Assembly (NCBI GenBank): GCA_001778095.1
Contig: MFGA01000023.1
Coordinates: forward strand, 46,811-110,810
DNA length: 64,000 nucleotides
Origin: Candidatus Falkowbacteria bacterium RIFOXYA2_FULL_38_12
GTDB lineage: Bacteria; Patescibacteriota; Patescibacteriia; XYB2-FULL-38-15
Direction of reading: 5' to 3'
The notes beneath the pieces were generated by a model. It was given only the letters and a program-made list of their open reading frames with translations, was not told the DNA's origin and did not search any database. Both the position numbers and the translations under genes were made by a program. Shown piece by piece: positions 20,268 through 40,667 of the stretch (position 1 is the stretch's first letter; each line of letters starts with the position of its first letter).

Positions 20268-20360
20268 TTTTCCCCTCCCTTGAGGGGAGGGGCTAGGGGA
20301 GGGTGGGATGCTTGAATTGTCGATCACCCCCTCCTTACCTCCCCCCTCAAGGGGGAGGAA
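20268..20360. repeat. GC-rich palindromic / G-tract region in an intercistronic spacer
   Basis: CCCCTCCCTTGAGGGGAGGGG and CCTCCCCCCTCAAGGGGGAGG self-complementary hairpins. The plus strand reads GGGGAGGGGCTAGGGGAGGGTGGG (five G-tracts). Confidence 0.5.
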
Positions 20361-21143: not shown

Positions 21144-21153
21144 ATATTTCTCC

Positions 21154-21253
21154 GCGTCATTCTGAGCAAAGCGACCCCGCAAAAGGCGGGGCGCGTATGC
21201 GGGAAAATATTGCAGGCATTCGCCTGAGATCCTTCACTGCGTTCAGGATGACG
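21154..21253. repeat. palindromic intercistronic element, GTCATYCYGAGC family
   Basis: CGTCATTCTGAGCAAAGCGA...GCGCGTATGCGGG...GAGATCCTTCACTGCGTTCAGGATGACG. The right 45 nt are nearly identical to the reverse complement of the 47321-47423 copy. Confidence 0.6.
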
Positions 21254-21470
21254 ATACTGTCAAGAATTATTATAAATTCTTAAGTACAAATATCGTACCA
21301 CAAAAAACAAAAAATTCCCAGTCATGAGAATCTTTTGGCGAGAGACAACCTATTGCTTTGCGTATAAATTGTATTTTATAAGCAATTGGAGAAATTGCTT
21401 CTCACAATAGATCGCCCCTCATTTATAATGCTACTACAAATAAATGAAAAAGTCATTAAAAAATCACAAA

Positions 21471-36900: not shown

Positions 36901-36974
36901 TTGATATTTACACAATTACAGTAACCCGTAAGTATCGAACCCACAATGCTTCTTTTCCCTACCTGCCGATGCCA

Positions 36975-37045: not shown

Positions 37046-37136
37046 ATGGCTTTGGCGGGAGGAAAAAACATGACACTAACCTCGCTAAGCTCCCATGCTA
37101 TAAACTCTAAATTCGAAATTCAAATATCTCCCCTTT

Positions 37137-37215
37137 GTCATTTCGAGCTTGTCGAGAAATCTCATACAGTGAATTGTGGTAAGGGGTGAGATCCCTCGAC
37201 AAGCTCGGGATGACG
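37137..37215. repeat. palindromic element, GTCATYYCGAGC family variant (79-nt hairpin)
   Basis: GTCATTTCGAGCTTGTCGAGAAATCTC - 24-nt loop - GAGATCCCTCGACAAGCTCGGGATGAC, a ~27-bp stem. Confidence 0.6.
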
Positions 37216-37365
37216 AGTTAGATCAGCCTGTTTTGGATTTTGGTCATTTGATATTTGGATTTGTTTAGGATTTGGTGCTTAGGATTTAGGATTTTGATTA
37301 TTTCTAAAATTACTTCTGCTATCACGGTAAGGTGATGTAAAAAAAGAGAATACGCTCGCGCTATC

Positions 37366-38931
37366 TTACTGTATAGAATTAAAAACCGGCGCGAGGAAAT
37401 TGTCAATCGGAACGTAATTATCGGTTAGGACAATCGCCTTTTTTTCTTCCAAAAATTTTGTAACTTCTTCATTCTCGGCAAAATATCCGATTTCCTCCGG
37501 CGAATCTCTTTCGTCTCCGCTCCCAGCTTCCGCCGTTGTCCATAAAACCTCGCCCCATTTATTTATATCCAATTCCGTCTCTCCGGCTAAAATGACAAAA
37601 GTATTTCTTTTATCTATTTCCCAGTTACTCGCAAGGGGCGCGAGATAAACATAAGGGAAAATTTCTCGCATTGTTTTCAAAAATGATCCAACAAATTTTC
37701 CGTATTTGTAATTATCAATCACATTCACTGCGTAATATCCATCCGGGGCGAGATGCTCTTTTATTATTTTTCCGAATTCCAGTGTTGTCAGGTGATAAGG
37801 CACGGCAAAATCATTAAACGCATCGCCAAAGATAAGATCGTATTTTTTTTCCGCCGACGCTTTGGCTAAAAACATTCGCGCGTCCGCGTTGGTTGTTTTT
37901 ATTTTTGTCTCCGGATTTAAACTTAAATGTTCATAGTTGAACTTTGTCACTCCGGGATCGATTTCGGCCACTTCCAAAGAGCTCTCGGGGTATATCTTTT
38001 CAAAATATCTCGGCAAAGTATATCCCCCGCCACCCAGAAAAAACGCTTCAAAATTACTTTCTCCGGTTTGTTTTATTCTATAATCCGTAAGAATTTTATA
38101 GAACCTTTCATAGTCGTAAGTTAAAACATCTTCATTGCCGGGGTAGACAAAACTGTGAACTAAGTGGTCGAGTCTTAAAACATATCCATTAACTCCACCG
38201 TCCAGAGTTTGCGCTCGGGCGTTAATGCAATAATAATTTGTTTCTTCTTGGCAATTTTTTGGAATAAAAAAGCTAAAAACCAAAAGGCATCCAAAAATAA
38301 TATTTGTTTTTTCTTTTAAAAAATCTTTGGCGCTTTTTCCAAAGATAAGAATAAAAAAACTTATCAAAACAAGGGCAACCGAAACTCCGATCACTATTAT
38401 TTTTGTTCCGAAAAAAGAGATTAAAAAATATCCCGTGGCAAATGTCCCCAAGATACTTCCCAGGGCGCTGAAGGCGTAAATGCGTCCAACGGTTTGACCG
38501 GCCTTTTCGAGGTTATCAAGATCAAACTTAACAACCATCGGAGAAATGCAACCTAAAAATAAACTGGCGGGAAAAAAAACAAAGAAAGAAAAAATAAAAG
38601 TCGCGAGAGGTATGGGGATCATCTCCGTCTTACCCAAAAGATTTCCAATAAACGGCACTGAATAAAGAACCCCGATACTGGAAATTCCGGCGAGAAAAAA
38701 AACACTGCTTAAAACTTTTTTGGACAGATTGCGATCGGCTACTCGTCCGCCCAAATAATTGCCGATACTTACTCCCCCTAGAATTATTCCTATTACGCTT
38801 GTCCAAGTATAAAGAGAGACCCCAAGATATGGAGCCATAATTCGTCCGGCAACGAGCTCTAAAACCATCAAGCAAAAACTGCTTGCGAAGATGATCAAAT
38901 TAGGAAATTTGAGACTTTCCTTATTCTCCAT
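37366..38931 (-). CDS. fused polytopic membrane / spermidine-synthase-like protein (paralog of 15519-17900 without M28 domain)
   Basis: ~8 TM helices followed by FFLGGGGYTLP and DLIFGDAFND motifs. The N-terminal LELVAGRIMAPYLG aligns to IIELAATRILSPYFG of the paralog. Confidence 0.65.
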   Translation of the reverse strand: MENKESLKFPNLIIFASSFCLMVLELVAGRIMAPYLGVSLYTWTSVIGIILGGVSIGNYLGGRVADRNLSKKVLSSVFFLAGISSIGVLYSVPFIGNLLGKTEMIPIPLATFIFSFFVFFPASLFLGCISPMVVKFDLDNLEKAGQTVGRIYAFSALGSILGTFATGYFLISFFGTKIIVIGVSVALVLISFFILIFGKSAKDFLKEKTNIIFGCLLVFSFFIPKNCQEETNYYCINARAQTLDGGVNGYVLRLDHLVHSFVYPGNEDVLTYDYERFYKILTDYRIKQTGESNFEAFFLGGGGYTLPRYFEKIYPESSLEVAEIDPGVTKFNYEHLSLNPETKIKTTNADARMFLAKASAEKKYDLIFGDAFNDFAVPYHLTTLEFGKIIKEHLAPDGYYAVNVIDNYKYGKFVGSFLKTMREIFPYVYLAPLASNWEIDKRNTFVILAGETELDINKWGEVLWTTAEAGSGDERDSPEEIGYFAENEEVTKFLEEKKAIVLTDNYVPIDNFLAPVFNSIQ

Positions 38932-39132
38932 TTGACTATGGGTTATTTCGTTTCTTTATGGGTTGTGTGTTTTTTGCACCACTTGCAATATTTTTCCAAC
39001 TCAAGTCTGTTTTTTATCGTCTTTTTATTTTTGTGGGAAAAATAATTGATGCGATGACAGACCGAACACTCCATTTTGATTAAATTGTCTTGAGACATAA
39101 TATTAATTTATTTTTATTTAAAAATTATTTTA

Positions 39133-39207
39133 TGGAGCCACCTCTCGGATTTGAACCGAGGACCTACTGTTTACAAAACAGTTGCTCTGCCGCTGAGCTA
39201 AGGTGGC
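39133..39207 (-). tRNA. tRNA-Thr(UGU)
   Basis: Reverse-complement GCCACCT-TA-GCTC-AGCGGC-AGAGC-A-ACTGT-TTTGTAA-ACAGT-AGGTC-CTCGG-TTCAAAT-CCGAG-AGGTGGC-T-CCA; CCA is encoded. Confidence 0.85.
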
Positions 39208-39217
39208 ATTATCTCTA

Positions 39218-39302
39218 TGGTGGGCAGGCAAGGATTTGCACCTTGGAAGGCGTGAGCCAGCAGATTTACAGTCTGCCCCGTTTGACTACTTCGGTACCTG
39301 CC
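39218..39302 (-). tRNA. tRNA-Tyr(GUA), type II with long variable arm
   Basis: Reverse-complement GGGCAGG-TA-CCG-AAGTAGTCAAA-CGG-G-GCAGA-CTGTAAA-TCTGC-TGGCTCACGCCTTC-CAAGG-TGCAAAT-CCTTG-CCTGCCC-A-CCA. Confidence 0.8.
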
Positions 39303-39399
39303 CTTTTTTTCAAAGCCGATGCGCCCCCGCAAATGCGGGGTTACCATGCCCCGCAAATGCGGGGTACCAACTGAGCTACATCCATGGCTTTTTCTACAA
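39303..39399 (-). pseudogene. tRNA-Thr-like remnant with D/anticodon and variable/T arms replaced by CCCCGCAAATGCGGGG hairpins
   Basis: The reverse complement reads GGATGTAGCTCAGTTGGTA-[CCCCGCATTTGCGGGG]-CATGGTAA-[CCCCGCATTTGCGGGG]-GCGCATCGGCTTT, and so preserves the acceptor, D-loop, anticodon loop CATGGTAA and 3' end of tRNA-Thr(GGU). Confidence 0.55.
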
Positions 39400-39472
39400 A
39401 GCCGATGCGCGGATTCGAACCGCGGACCTACTCCTTACCATGGAGTTGCTCTACCAACTGAGCTACATCGGC
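39400..39472 (-). tRNA. tRNA-Thr(GGU)
   Basis: Reverse-complement GCCGATG-TA-GCTC-AGTTGGT-AGAGC-A-ACTCC-ATGGTAA-GGAGT-AGGTC-CGCGG-TTCGAAT-CCGCG-CATCGGC-T; CCA is not encoded. Confidence 0.8.
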
Positions 39473-39724
39473 ATTTTTTAACATCTGACTCATTTCTAAT
39501 TCTAACTGTTTTCCACCTTTTAAACTTTTCAAATATCTTTCATATCTTGCCGCTTCCAACTTAGTATCAAATGCTTTAAAACAAGCTAATTCCAACGGCC
39601 GTCTATTCTTTGTGGACGGGTTTGCTCCGTTATTATGAAACTTAAGCCGCACTTCAAGATTATTAGTATGCCCTATGTATCTTCGTCCATCTTTCAGTGA
39701 TTTTAAAATATACGTATAAAACAT
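39428..39724 (-). CDS. GIY-YIG nuclease family protein (UPF0213/YazA-YhbQ-like, ~99 aa)
   Basis: MFYTYILKSLKDGRRYIGHTNNLEVRLKFHN...NRRPLELACFKAFDTKLEAARYERYLKS matches GIY-x10-YIG, the conserved Arg, Glu and the C-terminal helix. The start is set at the internal Met; the upstream 32 codons translate tRNA-fragment/hairpin DNA. The 3' end reads 45 nt into tRNA-Thr(GGU). Confidence 0.7.
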   Translation of the reverse strand: MFYTYILKSLKDGRRYIGHTNNLEVRLKFHNNGANPSTKNRRPLELACFKAFDTKLEAARYERYLKSLKGGKQLELEMSQMLKNADVAQLVEQLHGKE

Positions 39725-39796
39725 AGACTCCTTACCATGCCCCGCAAATGCGGGGTACCAACTGACCTGCCCCGCTTCTGCGGGGGCTACATCGGC
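39725..39796 (-). repeat. second tRNA-Thr 5'-half remnant with inserted GC hairpins
   Basis: Reverse-complement GCCGATGTAG-[CCCCCGCAGAAGCGGGGC]-AGGTCAGTTGGTA-[CCCCGCATTTGCGGGG]-CATGGTAAGGAGTCT-ATG. The tRNA anticodon-arm sequence supplies an AAGGAG Shine-Dalgarno 3 nt before the GIY-YIG start. Confidence 0.55.
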
Positions 39797-39881
39797 ATTT
39801 AATCTATTCGGGTAAAACAAAAAAACAACTCATGGTAAAGTTTTTGGATTACGAGACTAGCCGAGCAAAAACTTGGTCGGT

Positions 39882-40667
39882 CTAGCCAATATCCCTTATT
39901 CTTTCTTCAAATTCTTCTATTTTTTTATTCTCCGGATTAGCTTCTCTCAATTTTTGAAGAGCATTTTTGGCCAATTCTTTATTCCCTATTATTATACTTA
40001 TATCAGTTAAAAAATCAAGGCTTTTTGGTTTTGTCGGCTCCAGTTCTACGGCCTTGGAAAAAAACTTCAACGCCTTCATATTCTCTCCCTTTTGCTTTAA
40101 AAGCATTCCCAAATCAATTAAAACCTCTATATCGCGCGGATTGAGCTTTAAAATATACTGTAAAGTCTCTATCGCATAATCGTAGTTTTTTTGCTCGGAA
40201 TACAGGTTTCCCAATTTTTTATAAGCTTCTACGTTTTTATGATCCAGGCTTATTATCTCTATAAATATCTTCTCCGCCCCTTCTGTCTTTTCTTCTTTGA
40301 TCAATTCGTCCGCGGCAAAAAAAAGTTTCTTTATTTCAATTTCTTTTTCTTCCAGAGTCAATTTCGGCGATATTTTTTTCTTAGCATGTCTTTTTTCCCA
40401 ATCTGATATTTTATTATATTTTTCTTTAAAAATTCTTTTTATTTTTAAAATTATCGGAATAATCAAAGAAAAAATTCCCTTCTTAAAACTTTCCACTTTT
40501 CGCTCAAGTCTGGAAGCGATAATTTTTTCTTTTTGTTTTGCTTCCCTCTCGCTTTTTATTGATTCTATATCAATGGAGGCTAAAACCGGAAATTTTCTAA
40601 CTATAATAACAATTATCCCCACCAGGCAAACAATCGTAATTACAAGCGGAATAATATCGTAAGACAT
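39882..40667 (-). CDS. membrane-anchored tetratricopeptide-repeat protein
   Basis: N-terminal TM IIPLVITIVCLVGIIVIIV, then ≥3 TPR-like repeats (AYKKLGNLYSEQKNYDYAIETLQYILKLNP...). Confidence 0.6.
   Translation of the reverse strand: MSYDIIPLVITIVCLVGIIVIIVRKFPVLASIDIESIKSEREAKQKEKIIASRLERKVESFKKGIFSLIIPIILKIKRIFKEKYNKISDWEKRHAKKKISPKLTLEEKEIEIKKLFFAADELIKEEKTEGAEKIFIEIISLDHKNVEAYKKLGNLYSEQKNYDYAIETLQYILKLNPRDIEVLIDLGMLLKQKGENMKALKFFSKAVELEPTKPKSLDFLTDISIIIGNKELAKNALQKLREANPENKKIEEFEERIRDIG

Follow-up and report, generated by a model that had tools for sequence, protein, structure and literature searches.

A small GIY-YIG nuclease gene between an intact tRNA-Thr gene and its hairpin-bearing copy points to a proposed family of selfish tRNA-gene cassettes in Patescibacteria

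We analyzed a 64,000-nucleotide (nt) stretch of DNA (the window) from Candidatus Falkowbacteria bacterium RIFOXYA2_FULL_38_12 (contig MFGA01000023.1), in which the gene of a small GIY-YIG nuclease lies between an intact transfer RNA (tRNA) gene, tRNA-Thr(GGU), and a partial, hairpin-interrupted copy of the same tRNA, here called the mimic. The minus strand reads, in order, 5' mimic, CT, ATG, GIY-YIG open reading frame (ORF), intact tRNA-Thr(GGU), an 11-nt spacer, a pseudo-tRNA, tRNA-Tyr, tRNA-Thr(UGU), and rpmG (Table 1). A preliminary description, made from the letters of the DNA, had listed the intact tRNA, the upstream fragment, the ORF, and the downstream remnant, and all four pieces are present in the sequence. 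Comparison with genome and metagenome contigs makes it likely that the window holds one member of a recurrent family of such cassettes.

Table 1. Features of the locus and its neighborhood, with positions counted from the first letter of the window.
Feature	Positions	Strand	Basis or remark
Upstream tRNA-Thr(GGU) 5' mimic	39727..39796	-	sequence; repeat families D2, D3, D4, D9; no tRNA call
Hairpin X of the mimic	39785-39770	-	loop variant of the 16-mer
Hairpin hp1 of the mimic	39755-39740	-	
GIY-YIG ORF, 98 amino acids, UPF0213/Slx1-like, stand-alone	39428..39724	-	PF01541; fold model; conserved residues
Intact tRNA-Thr(GGU)	39400..39472	-	ARAGORN; Rfam tRNA 71.2 bits; cloverleaf minimum-free-energy fold
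Downstream double-hairpin pseudo-tRNA-Thr	39314..39388	-	sequence; no tRNA call
Hairpin hp1 of the pseudo-tRNA	39364-39349	-	
Hairpin hp2 of the pseudo-tRNA	39340-39325	-	identical in sequence to hp1
Block 1, not in sister strain, ~314 nt	39485..39798	-	AT + mimic + ORF body; alignment with L069
Block 2, not in sister strain, 87 nt	39309..39395	-	pseudo-tRNA + duplicated spacer; limits ambiguous within repeat GCGCATCGGCTTTG
tRNA-Tyr	39218-39303	-	also present in sister strain
tRNA-Thr(UGU)	39133-39207	-	also present in sister strain
rpmG	38943-39098	-	also present in sister strain
TPR protein gene, upstream neighbor	39882..40667	-	anchor for finding cassette-free alleles

The mimic reads GCCGATGTAG, hairpin X (CCCCGCAGAAGCGGGG), C, AGGTCAGTTGGTA, hairpin hp1 (CCCCGCATTTGCGGGG), and CATGGTAAGGAGT. 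In tRNA numbering it holds positions 1–10, hairpin X between G10 and the D-loop, AGGTC with the D-loop AGTTGGTA, hp1 as a substitute for positions 22–30, and positions 31–43. The 3' strand of the anticodon stem, left unpaired in the mimic, provides AAGGAG 4 nt before the ATG (39724–39722), which follows directly after CT, and the final 45 nt of the ORF (14 codons and the stop) are read from the intact tRNA gene, whose positions 43–45 form the stop codon TAG (39430–39428). The preliminary description was correct about the UPF0213 type of the nuclease, the ribosome-binding site taken from the anticodon arm, and the 45-nt overlap between ORF and tRNA; counted from its ATG, the protein has 98 rather than 99 amino acids (aa).

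The downstream pseudo-tRNA reads GCC-ATG-GATGTAGCTCAGTTGGTA, hp1, CATGGTAA, hp2, and GCGCATCGGCT. An ATG interrupts its acceptor 5' strand, after which come positions 4–21, hp1, C31 with the anticodon loop, hp2, and positions 63–73, so that hp2 replaces the anticodon 3' strand, the variable loop, and the T arm. Both remnants lack the D-stem 3' strand and the anticodon-stem 5' strand, and the downstream copy lacks the T arm as well. Neither was called as a tRNA by ARAGORN or by Rfam (E ≤ 1), whose calls at the locus are Thr-GGU, Tyr, and Thr-UGU, in agreement with the earlier view that the remnants are neither intact tRNAs nor introns; the intact tRNA-Thr(GGU) is, judging from its sequence, presumably functional. 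Scanning both strands for the hairpin with up to three mismatches gave 11 matches against 0.34 expected from shuffled sequence, and 9 of these fall on the four hairpins of this locus. Three of the four are exact copies, as had been claimed for all of them; the exception, a loop variant, is the hairpin that comes first in the upstream fragment. The 14-mer direct repeat CAAAGCCGATGCGC (repeat family D6) starts at 39311 and 39397, with a spacing of 86 nt, and not at 39308 and 39396 as first given. Folded as RNA, the downstream remnant (39303–39399) has a predicted minimum-free-energy structure (-42.8 kcal/mol, z -4.6) in which one identical hairpin pairs with the other, giving an acceptor stem with a 3-nt bulge and a long GC helix capped by the anticodon loop; the other loci inspected by eye, in which the spacers differ and the acceptor strands are degenerate, do not share this nested fold.

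The only Pfam domain in the ORF product is PF01541, matched over residues 2–71 with 63.9 bits (cut-off 22.6, E = 1.7e-17). Its closest sequences in the PDB are UPF0213 BH0048 (1zg2, E = 5e-8), EF2693 (1ywl, E = 1e-4), and the SLX1 homologue At-HIGLE (7wme, E = 6e-3). Residues of the catalytic type are conserved; across 22 homologues, G19, R27, N32, E63, and K67 are invariant, and Y6, Y17, and H31 are conserved in at least 90%. An AlphaFold model based on these 22 homologues has a mean confidence (pLDDT) of 85.9 and shows three strands with helices in the alpha/beta GIY-YIG fold; the core is predicted confidently and the C-terminal 10–15 residues, which are read from the tRNA, poorly. Foldseek placed UPF0213 BH0048 and Slx1 at the top for this model (probability 1.00, E = 2e-4 to 1e-3, TM score ~0.6), followed at a distance by the I-TevI catalytic domain (E = 0.5–0.7) and UvrC (E = 1.8). 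The group I intron endonuclease family TIGR01453 gave 16.3 bits against a cut-off of 56, which places the protein outside the I-TevI/Seg group; a PHROG homing-endonuclease family reached no better than E = 7e-3, and the PADLOC defense models gave no family at E ≤ 0.01. On sequence and predicted fold, the protein is thus assigned to the Slx1/UPF0213 lineage, to which it is closer than to the UvrC or I-TevI lineages, and its catalytic core of ~85 aa resembles the minimal stand-alone type of Slx1-like protein that Dunin-Horkawicz et al. (PMC1564403) described for prokaryotes. In a set of 12 in-register ORFs, differences at nonsynonymous sites (pN) amount to 0.07–0.24 per site and synonymous differences (pS) to 0.46–0.76, values that are proportions only, with synonymous sites near saturation. 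The low pN beside a nearly saturated pS indicates that the protein is maintained and that the copies are old.

A scan for the succession of D-loop, CCCC..GGGG hairpin, and anticodon loop recovered 6 loci in the genome collection and 45 in metagenomes, that is, 51 further loci (L numbers denote individual loci below), and 0 matches in viral contigs, in which there was no sign of a phage origin. In all 51, the mimic lies on the same strand as a tRNA-Thr(GGU) cluster and adjoins it. An intact tRNA stands within 500 nt in 39 of the 51, and a GIY-YIG match accompanies 31, 26 of them with the full-length domain; contig ends truncate many of the others. For three homologues, the genomic context consisted of mimic, ORF, and tRNA every time, and look-ups anchored on the protein, which are not biased toward the hairpin (P0027, P0003, P0020, and P0055), showed the same hairpin in all. 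The source assemblies (ENA, JGI, NCBI, and Logan) stem from many samples. An engineered-looking tRNA mimic, which the preliminary description had offered as an alternative, is an unneeded idea: this is a natural feature, common to metagenomes that come from many sites and were built with many assemblers.

The fusion of ORF and tRNA recurs with the same regularity. Among the 120 homologues listed, which are mostly from Patescibacteria where a source is named, 27 of the ~60 closest end in the tail AQLVEQLHGKE, the translation of tRNA-Thr positions 1–42, with the stop at positions 43–45. At least 6 homologues (up to ~9 by eye) read instead through a hairpin-bearing mimic, and ~17 (by eye) end in P followed by L, M, S, or R, with a TAG stop at tRNA positions 8–10. 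Since all these tails are tRNA-derived, the ORF of the Thr clade, always fused to the 5' part of a tRNA-Thr, lacks its own stop codon. The downstream pseudo-tRNA with hp1 and hp2 also follows tRNA-Thr in L014, L035, L038, L046, L059, and L060.

About 20 of the loci show the arrangement with no GIY-YIG gene, an outcome that the preliminary description had named as weakening the case for mobility. Formally this is what we found, yet at least five of these loci keep ORF remnants (L020, L022, L025, L055, and L030), and L054 and L015 differ from an occupied allele by exactly one unit; the ORF-less loci fit loss after invasion and are not an argument against mobility.

Several loci depart from the basic order. 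In L062 (2270–2450), and also in L037 and L057, the succession is mimic, intact tRNA-Thr, ORF, pseudo-tRNA, and the pseudo-Thr of L062 carries at least five hairpins, including a doubled hp1 (CCCCGCAAATGCGGG-CTTG-CCCCGTATCTGCGGGGG). L059 (1–290) and L027 (2040–2300) contain head-to-tail arrays of hairpin-bearing tRNA-Thr copies, with units of 71 nt repeated at least four times and 76 nt at least three times, respectively; in L059 the tRNA 3' end is joined straight to the D-loop (GGCT|CAG), as if recombined at a shared GCT. Contigs often end, or have runs of N, in or just after the locus (L001–L006, L009, L011, L012, L014, and L016), and since the repeats evidently break short-read assemblies, the copy numbers given here are lower bounds.

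The hairpin is a conserved part of the mimic. Its stem, CCCCGC/GCGGGG (6 + 6 nt), is unchanged in 101 of 102 mimic copies, with the search pattern fixing the outer four pairs and leaving the inner pairs free, and its loops vary in sequence and in length (3 to 5 nt); five loci found via the protein alone carry the same stem. In the Thr family the site is fixed as well, the hairpin substituting for positions 22–30 in more than 100 copies. When 349 kilobases of fetched loci were scanned for hairpins of a relaxed type, 117 of 132 lay within Thr mimics; of the other 15, at least 7 belong to pseudo-copies of other tRNAs, and the remainder resemble terminators or are parts of repeat elements. The preliminary description had read the hairpins as scars of decay, a view that does not survive the finding of the same hairpin at the same tRNA position in 51 other loci, with an invariant stem and varying loops, in elements whose ORF synonymous sites are nearly saturated. 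The tRNA-like arms may be homogenized by gene conversion with the neighboring tRNA; the hairpin has no such master copy, which argues for its selection. We infer that the hairpin is a conserved module of the element family, under selection. The stems, being invariant, show no covariation. Palindromic fill-in at hairpin-opened DNA ends was considered as an origin and rejected, the stems not being inverted copies of flanking tRNA sequence. Two pairs of loops are reverse complements, AAAT (19 copies) with ATTT (4 copies, the window among them) and ATCT (42 copies) with AGAT (1 copy), so that the palindrome seems to flip or to insert in either orientation.

With more distant GIY-YIG proteins, encoded on the same contigs and on others, the same sandwich, an ORF between an intact tRNA and a partial copy of it, occurs at tRNA-Trp (L020 and L024), tRNA-Tyr (L016 and L051), tRNA-Gln (L030, L066, and L067), and tRNA-Ser (L068). 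The partial copies carry a GC hairpin near the ORF-proximal end, at a loop position: in the D-loop at 18/19 for Gln, in the anticodon loop at 34/35 or at the junction of variable arm and T stem for Tyr, from anticodon loop to T-loop for Trp, and in the T-loop at 56/57 for Ser. Either the 5' or the 3' end of the tRNA may be duplicated, and the ORF may lie upstream or downstream. In a neighbor-joining tree, the GIY-YIG proteins group by the tRNA that they flank. The Ser-type contig, which has a neighboring gene with a Por_Secre_tail domain, probably comes from Bacteroidota.

Two further kinds of tRNA-Tyr copy were seen. In L014 (5327–5470), three GC hairpins (D-loop, anticodon loop, and variable arm) interrupt a pseudo-tRNA-Tyr that directly precedes the real tRNA-Tyr, with no nuclease gene nearby. 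In L007 (655–735), and also in L008, L022, L025, L026, L050, and L055, a copy of the last 21 nt of tRNA-Tyr lies downstream of tRNA-Tyr with no ORF; in front of this copy stand GGTTCG and, inserted in the T-loop, two GC hairpins (TCCTGTCATCCGACAGGA and CGCCACGTCGGATGACGTGGCG). By its sequence, it looks like the relic of a Tyr-type cassette.

With the TPR gene as anchor we found a close relative without the insertion, the kind of genome to which the preliminary description had pointed for comparison. Five independent contigs of this sister strain (L069–L073) carry TPR, tRNA-Thr(GGU), tRNA-Tyr, tRNA-Thr(UGU), and rpmG and are free of ORF, mimic, and downstream remnant; their TIM and TPR sequences are 94.7% and 93.5% identical to those of the window. 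Aligned with L069, the window is collinear outside the two inserted blocks of Table 1. The last 12 nt of the ORF (ATGTTAAAAAAT, 39484–39473) align with the leader of the sister's tRNA (GTGTTAAAAAT, L069:2745–2758), and the mimic starts 2 nt past the motif GATTAA, where in the sister the tRNA starts 11 nt past it; the mimic thus occupies the place of the tRNA behind whichever promoter drives the operon.

Alleles that differ by whole units were found elsewhere. The flanks of L031 are identical to those of L054, and a single 306-nt unit of ORF and mimic makes up the whole difference between the two; of the mimics in L031, the ORF-distal one agrees with the local tRNA (GCCGTTG), the ORF-proximal one looks foreign (GCCGACA), and a perfect TTGACA-17-TATAAT, read by eye, stands upstream of the L054/L031 mimic. 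One aquifer population (L005, L007, L022, L025, L050, and L055) contains 0, 1, or 2 ORFs and 1–5 mimics, and its ORF-less units retain the last 13 nt of the ORF. Decayed ORFs include a frameshift (L011), an internal deletion (L020), and split genes (L040, L042, and L061). The cassette is absent from intermediate relatives (L075, L077, and L079; TIM ~51% identical). Compared with the window, L009 and L001 share 79% and 71% of their GIY-YIG residues but 48% and 46% in TIM and 39% and 44% in TPR. Patchy presence, together with a nuclease more alike than its housekeeping neighbors, is the pattern expected of horizontal spread. Of the earlier reading of the locus as the scar of a mobile GIY-YIG element, mobility is therefore supported, as the sister strain lacks both blocks, ORF copies number 0 to 2, some ORFs are decayed, and the proteins are excessively similar; the hairpins as products of decay are not. 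In the GIY-free L075 (3406–3517 and 4045–4200), long GC-rich structured inserts lie between tRNA-Thr and tRNA-Tyr, and tRNA-Trp is followed by a piece similar to its T-loop and T stem (CCGATTCCTTCC).

The conserved gene, its tRNA-welded ends, unit-sized gain, loss, and decay, absence in the nearest relative, excess similarity, and tRNA-specific lineages fit a selfish homing-type cassette. We therefore favor, with modest confidence, the reading that these are selfish cassettes of a minimal Slx1-like nuclease that colonize tRNA genes, including the mechanism outlined here, which the precedents of SegB and the fungal mORFs (see below) make plausible. On a chromosome free of the cassette, the nuclease would break the cognate tRNA gene, within or close to the stretch from the D-loop to the anticodon stem. 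Homologous recombination with a cassette-bearing copy would repair the break, with the tRNA parts serving as portable homology arms (mimic positions 1–21 on one side and the full tRNA on the other), so that the cassette could enter any genome with that tRNA, whatever the flanks. The product, as seen in the window, is mimic, ORF, and intact tRNA, a duplication that would preserve tRNA function. AAGGAG, from the freed anticodon strand, serves as the ribosome-binding site; the stop codon is borrowed from the tRNA, and the ORF, which comes directly after the point where the sister's tRNA begins, probably uses the tRNA promoter, as suggested by the sister alignment and the promoter-like motif of L054/L031. 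Selection would keep the hairpin, which, in the spare copy, may abolish the tRNA fold as well as the site of the nuclease, free the ribosome-binding site, and cut the repeat into stretches of at most 21 nt, slowing deletion by recombination. Unequal recombination between copies then gives the observed tandem amplification, solo mimics, downstream pseudo-tRNAs, ORF decay, and loss. The specific steps, namely the cleavage target and the role of the hairpin, we put forward more tentatively than the reading as a whole; they could well prove otherwise.

A number of points weigh against this reading. The putative nuclease target is deduced solely from the hairpin positions and the SegB precedent. 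The intact tRNA beside the ORF equals the sister's cassette-free tRNA over positions 8–53, so a tRNA-directed nuclease should also cut its own host's copy, a problem of self-immunity. The identical hairpin in the ORF-less downstream pseudo-tRNAs does not fit a role in ORF expression, and hairpin-stuffed pseudo-tRNAs with no ORF, together with the same stem as an ordinary terminator, leave room for independent mobile palindromes. The protein has no DNA-binding or other second domain, ending after its catalytic core, and in fold and sequence it belongs with the structure-selective Slx1/UPF0213 lineage, far from the I-TevI/Seg homing lineage. The direction of change, gain or loss, is not readable from two alleles; the sister leader GTGTTAAAAAT resembles the conserved 3' end of the ORF, so that the empty allele may belong to a former host that lost the cassette. 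Finally, all three Thr copies of the window have A5:T68 where the sister has T5:A68, and no native copy can be told from an imported one.

Some of these points would be eased if the mimics were active partners of the nuclease, either with the GC hairpin, or the DNA cloverleaf of the tRNA gene, as the branched target (structure-guided homing) or as decoy RNAs that restrain a tRNA-directed nuclease. From the fold of the enzyme, recognition of DNA structure or of RNA is possible, and structure-guided homing would need no DNA-binding domain; we consider active mimics of either kind unlikely overall.

Two superimposed phenomena, in which slippage duplicates of tRNAs are colonized by mobile GC-rich palindromes and the GIY-YIG gene merely rides in a highly expressed tRNA operon, neither making nor requiring the hairpins, offer a rather improbable alternative. 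The palindromes would resemble the GC clusters of AT-rich yeast mitochondrial DNA and survive in non-essential spare copies only. Pseudo-tRNAs with several hairpins and no ORF are in keeping with this (the three-hairpin pseudo-Tyr of L014, the L059 array, L035, L038, and L060), as are the CCCGC..GCGGG core, which also forms an ordinary terminator stem (e.g., L041:4429), the reverse-complementary AAAT and ATTT loops, which insertion in either orientation or loop flipping predicts, and the GC-rich inserts and pseudo-Trp fragment between the tRNAs of the GIY-free L075. Such palindromes should not, however, choose a single site (22–30) in more than 100 Thr copies or the ORF-proximal end of the partial copy in every tRNA type. 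Nor do they explain why loci selected by the hairpin have the ORF in 31 of 51 cases and ORF relics in at least five of the ORF-less ones, why the start context and stop of the ORF are built from mimic and tRNA, or why the hairpins are nearly absent from the other intergenic DNA of the loci.

The self-immunity problem would also be solved by a system that works at the RNA level, like a type III toxin-antitoxin system, in which the nuclease acts on tRNA-Thr or a tRNA-like RNA and the transcribed mimic, displaying D-loop and anticodon loop, is a neutralizing decoy. To our knowledge, however, all characterized GIY-YIG enzymes are DNases. Tandem mimic arrays upstream of the ORF or the tRNA (L003, L008, L025, L027, and L050), the tie of each protein clade to one tRNA species, and the stable fold predicted for the downstream remnant speak for such a decoy, as do the fusion of an Slx1-like domain to the tRNA G18 methyltransferase TrmH and the RNA-related roles that earlier authors suggested (PMC1564403). 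Set against them are the lack of a PADLOC match, an acceptor 5' strand that is degenerate or absent in many mimics, so that no common RNA fold is conserved, and stems with no covariation. The exact junctions of ORF end and tRNA and the unit-sized indels are, moreover, what DNA-level insertion and recombination predict, and we judge the decoy system distinctly improbable.

A resident repair nuclease with a tRNA-like regulatory leader that binds threonyl-tRNA synthetase or RNase P, in the manner of the Escherichia coli thrS operator, is very improbable. It would account for the anticodon loop kept in the mimic with AAGGAG just ahead of the ATG and for an ORF under purifying selection. The gene is, however, missing from the closest sister strain and from intermediate relatives, its copy number is polymorphic, and the ORF is often decayed; this polymorphism of presence and copy number argues strongly against a regulatory leader. 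The involvement of five tRNA species, with the ORF upstream or downstream, and of ORF-less mimics that also lie downstream of tRNAs, adds to the difficulty. That the locus is a misread intron, an integrase-island junction with att duplications, or an assembly chimera is scarcely credible, for although group I introns exist in Patescibacteria tRNA genes, including Thr(GGU) (PMC13011429), and contigs often end at this locus, there is no Rfam intron or ribozyme at E ≤ 1, the complete tRNA makes splicing unneeded, there is no integrase, the inserted blocks (314 and 87 nt) hold no other ORF, the duplicated parts include tRNA 5' ends, and the same architecture appears across ENA, JGI, NCBI, and Logan assemblies.

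Around the locus and across the window, a permissive Rfam search (E ≤ 1) of 38500–40500 found three tRNAs and one chance plastid match, with no intron, ribozyme, or other known noncoding RNA, and a scan of 38900–40000 for sigma-70 promoters and terminators did no better than on shuffled sequence, with no clear promoter upstream of the mimic. The plus-strand ORFs 39090–39374, 39203–39481, and 39319–39564 run antisense across tRNA genes and are best treated as artifacts, as the preliminary description had it. A search of the rest of the window for further GIY-YIG genes or tRNA fragments found none. About 30 nt downstream of tRNA-Trp (36930–36973, minus strand) there is a short T-loop-like string, GGGTTCGATAC, either chance or a faint relic of a Trp-type pseudo-copy. 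GC-rich palindromic intergenic repeats at 20270–20360, 21150–21270, and 37100–37260 (e.g., CCCCTCCCTTGAGGGGAGGGG, and inverted repeats of the GTCAT..CTGAGC type that surround CCCCGCAAAAGGCGGGG) have no relation to tRNA sequence and give the impression of further repeat families in this genome.

Bacteria very commonly encode small stand-alone GIY-YIG proteins of the UPF0213 and Slx1-like kind, to which no role is assigned. Taken with ~60 related loci, the one described here suggests that several clades of them, or more, are selfish cassettes specialized on single tRNA genes, pointing to an undescribed family of such elements in ultra-small bacteria. Their design would be economical, with a likely tRNA promoter, an anticodon stem as ribosome-binding site, and a tRNA-derived stop, the host surviving through the duplicated tRNA segment. 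The hairpin that marks the spare copy is a new feature, and it may show how the element avoids self-destruction or deletion. In practical terms, the cassettes break metagenome assemblies at tRNA clusters and create tRNA-like pseudogenes and spurious ORF extensions in annotation, and they may move tRNA alleles between Patescibacteria lineages. If an enzyme of ~85 aa should prove specific for a site or a structure, it would rank with the smallest targeting nucleases known; should the mimics be active partners, part of the large UPF0213 family would gain its first function, and there would be a new system of nuclease and nucleic-acid partner made from tRNA parts.

Among known proteins, Slx1 and UPF0213 (BH0048, EF2693, and At-HIGLE) are the best sequence and fold matches of the cassette protein, with the difference that eukaryotic Slx1 is a structure-selective repair nuclease that needs Slx4. 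For bacterial UPF0213 proteins we know of no reported function, mobility, or tRNA linkage, and our literature search found none. Full-text searches likewise brought up no account of small GIY-YIG genes that have hairpin-interrupted copies of a tRNA at their sides, with the proviso that the UPF0213/YhbQ query was swamped by unrelated words. ToxIN, a type III toxin-antitoxin system, combines tandem short repeats, a hairpin, and a nuclease gene; its nuclease, ToxN, is an RNase whose fold is unrelated, and the repeats do not come from tRNA. The cassette differs further in having no PADLOC match and in that many mimics lie downstream of the tRNA or have no ORF. GIY-YIG goes unmentioned in a recent survey of the tRNA introns of Patescibacteria (PMC13011429).

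The cassette may also be set beside two systems of phage T4. SegB is a protein of ~220 aa with a DNA-binding region. It is a free-standing GIY-YIG homing endonuclease encoded in the T4 tRNA cluster, and it cuts inside tRNA genes at a 27-base-pair site with a T-loop motif (PMC2330249). Like the cassette, it is a GIY-YIG gene among tRNA genes that is missing from close relatives, and its homing takes flanking tRNA genes along (PMC2330249). Unlike the cassette protein, it is a phage protein of I-TevI-like lineage with a gene more than twice as long (a 687-base-pair fragment was cloned for expression; PMC2330249). The cassette has a ~85-aa Slx1/UPF0213 core and is chromosomal in Patescibacteria, whereas SegB has no flanking partial, hairpin-interrupted copy of its target tRNA; T-loop recognition by SegB nevertheless offers a direct reason why the loop motifs of the tRNA would be removed by hairpins in spare copies. 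In the second system, reportedly described by Bonocora et al. in 2011, the T4 homing gene mobA moves together with the 50-nt gene 60 bypass insert, a short sequence that forms a hairpin and disrupts the nuclease site in the adjacent essential gene. Rescue of gene 60 is by translational bypassing; in the cassette it is by tRNA duplication, with protection by the hairpin as a putative element.

Logically, and by analogy, the closest match to the succession of mimic, ORF, and intact tRNA is the fungal mitochondrial mORF. In Allomyces atp6 and in Glomus atp6, atp9, cox2, and nad3, an endonuclease ORF enters an essential gene together with a replacement gene end (PMC3630166). The result is a working hybrid gene, with the displaced native end left as an unexpressed partial duplicate, and the ORF can be in frame; horizontal transfer has been described (PMC3630166). 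An ORF between a functional gene and a displaced partial duplicate is what we find at Thr (the window and more than 30 loci), Trp, Tyr, Gln, and Ser. The mORFs differ in having protein-coding organelle targets, mostly LAGLIDADG enzymes, and immunity through synonymous divergence of the imported end (PMC3630166); the cassette has a tRNA target, a duplicated 5' or 3' end, near-identical copies, and a conserved hairpin in the spare copy. The cassette is thus of an already known kind, a free-standing endonuclease gene with a duplication of its target gene, and its new aspects are a bacterial chromosomal tRNA target, a minimal Slx1-like enzyme, a conserved hairpin module, and borrowed expression signals.

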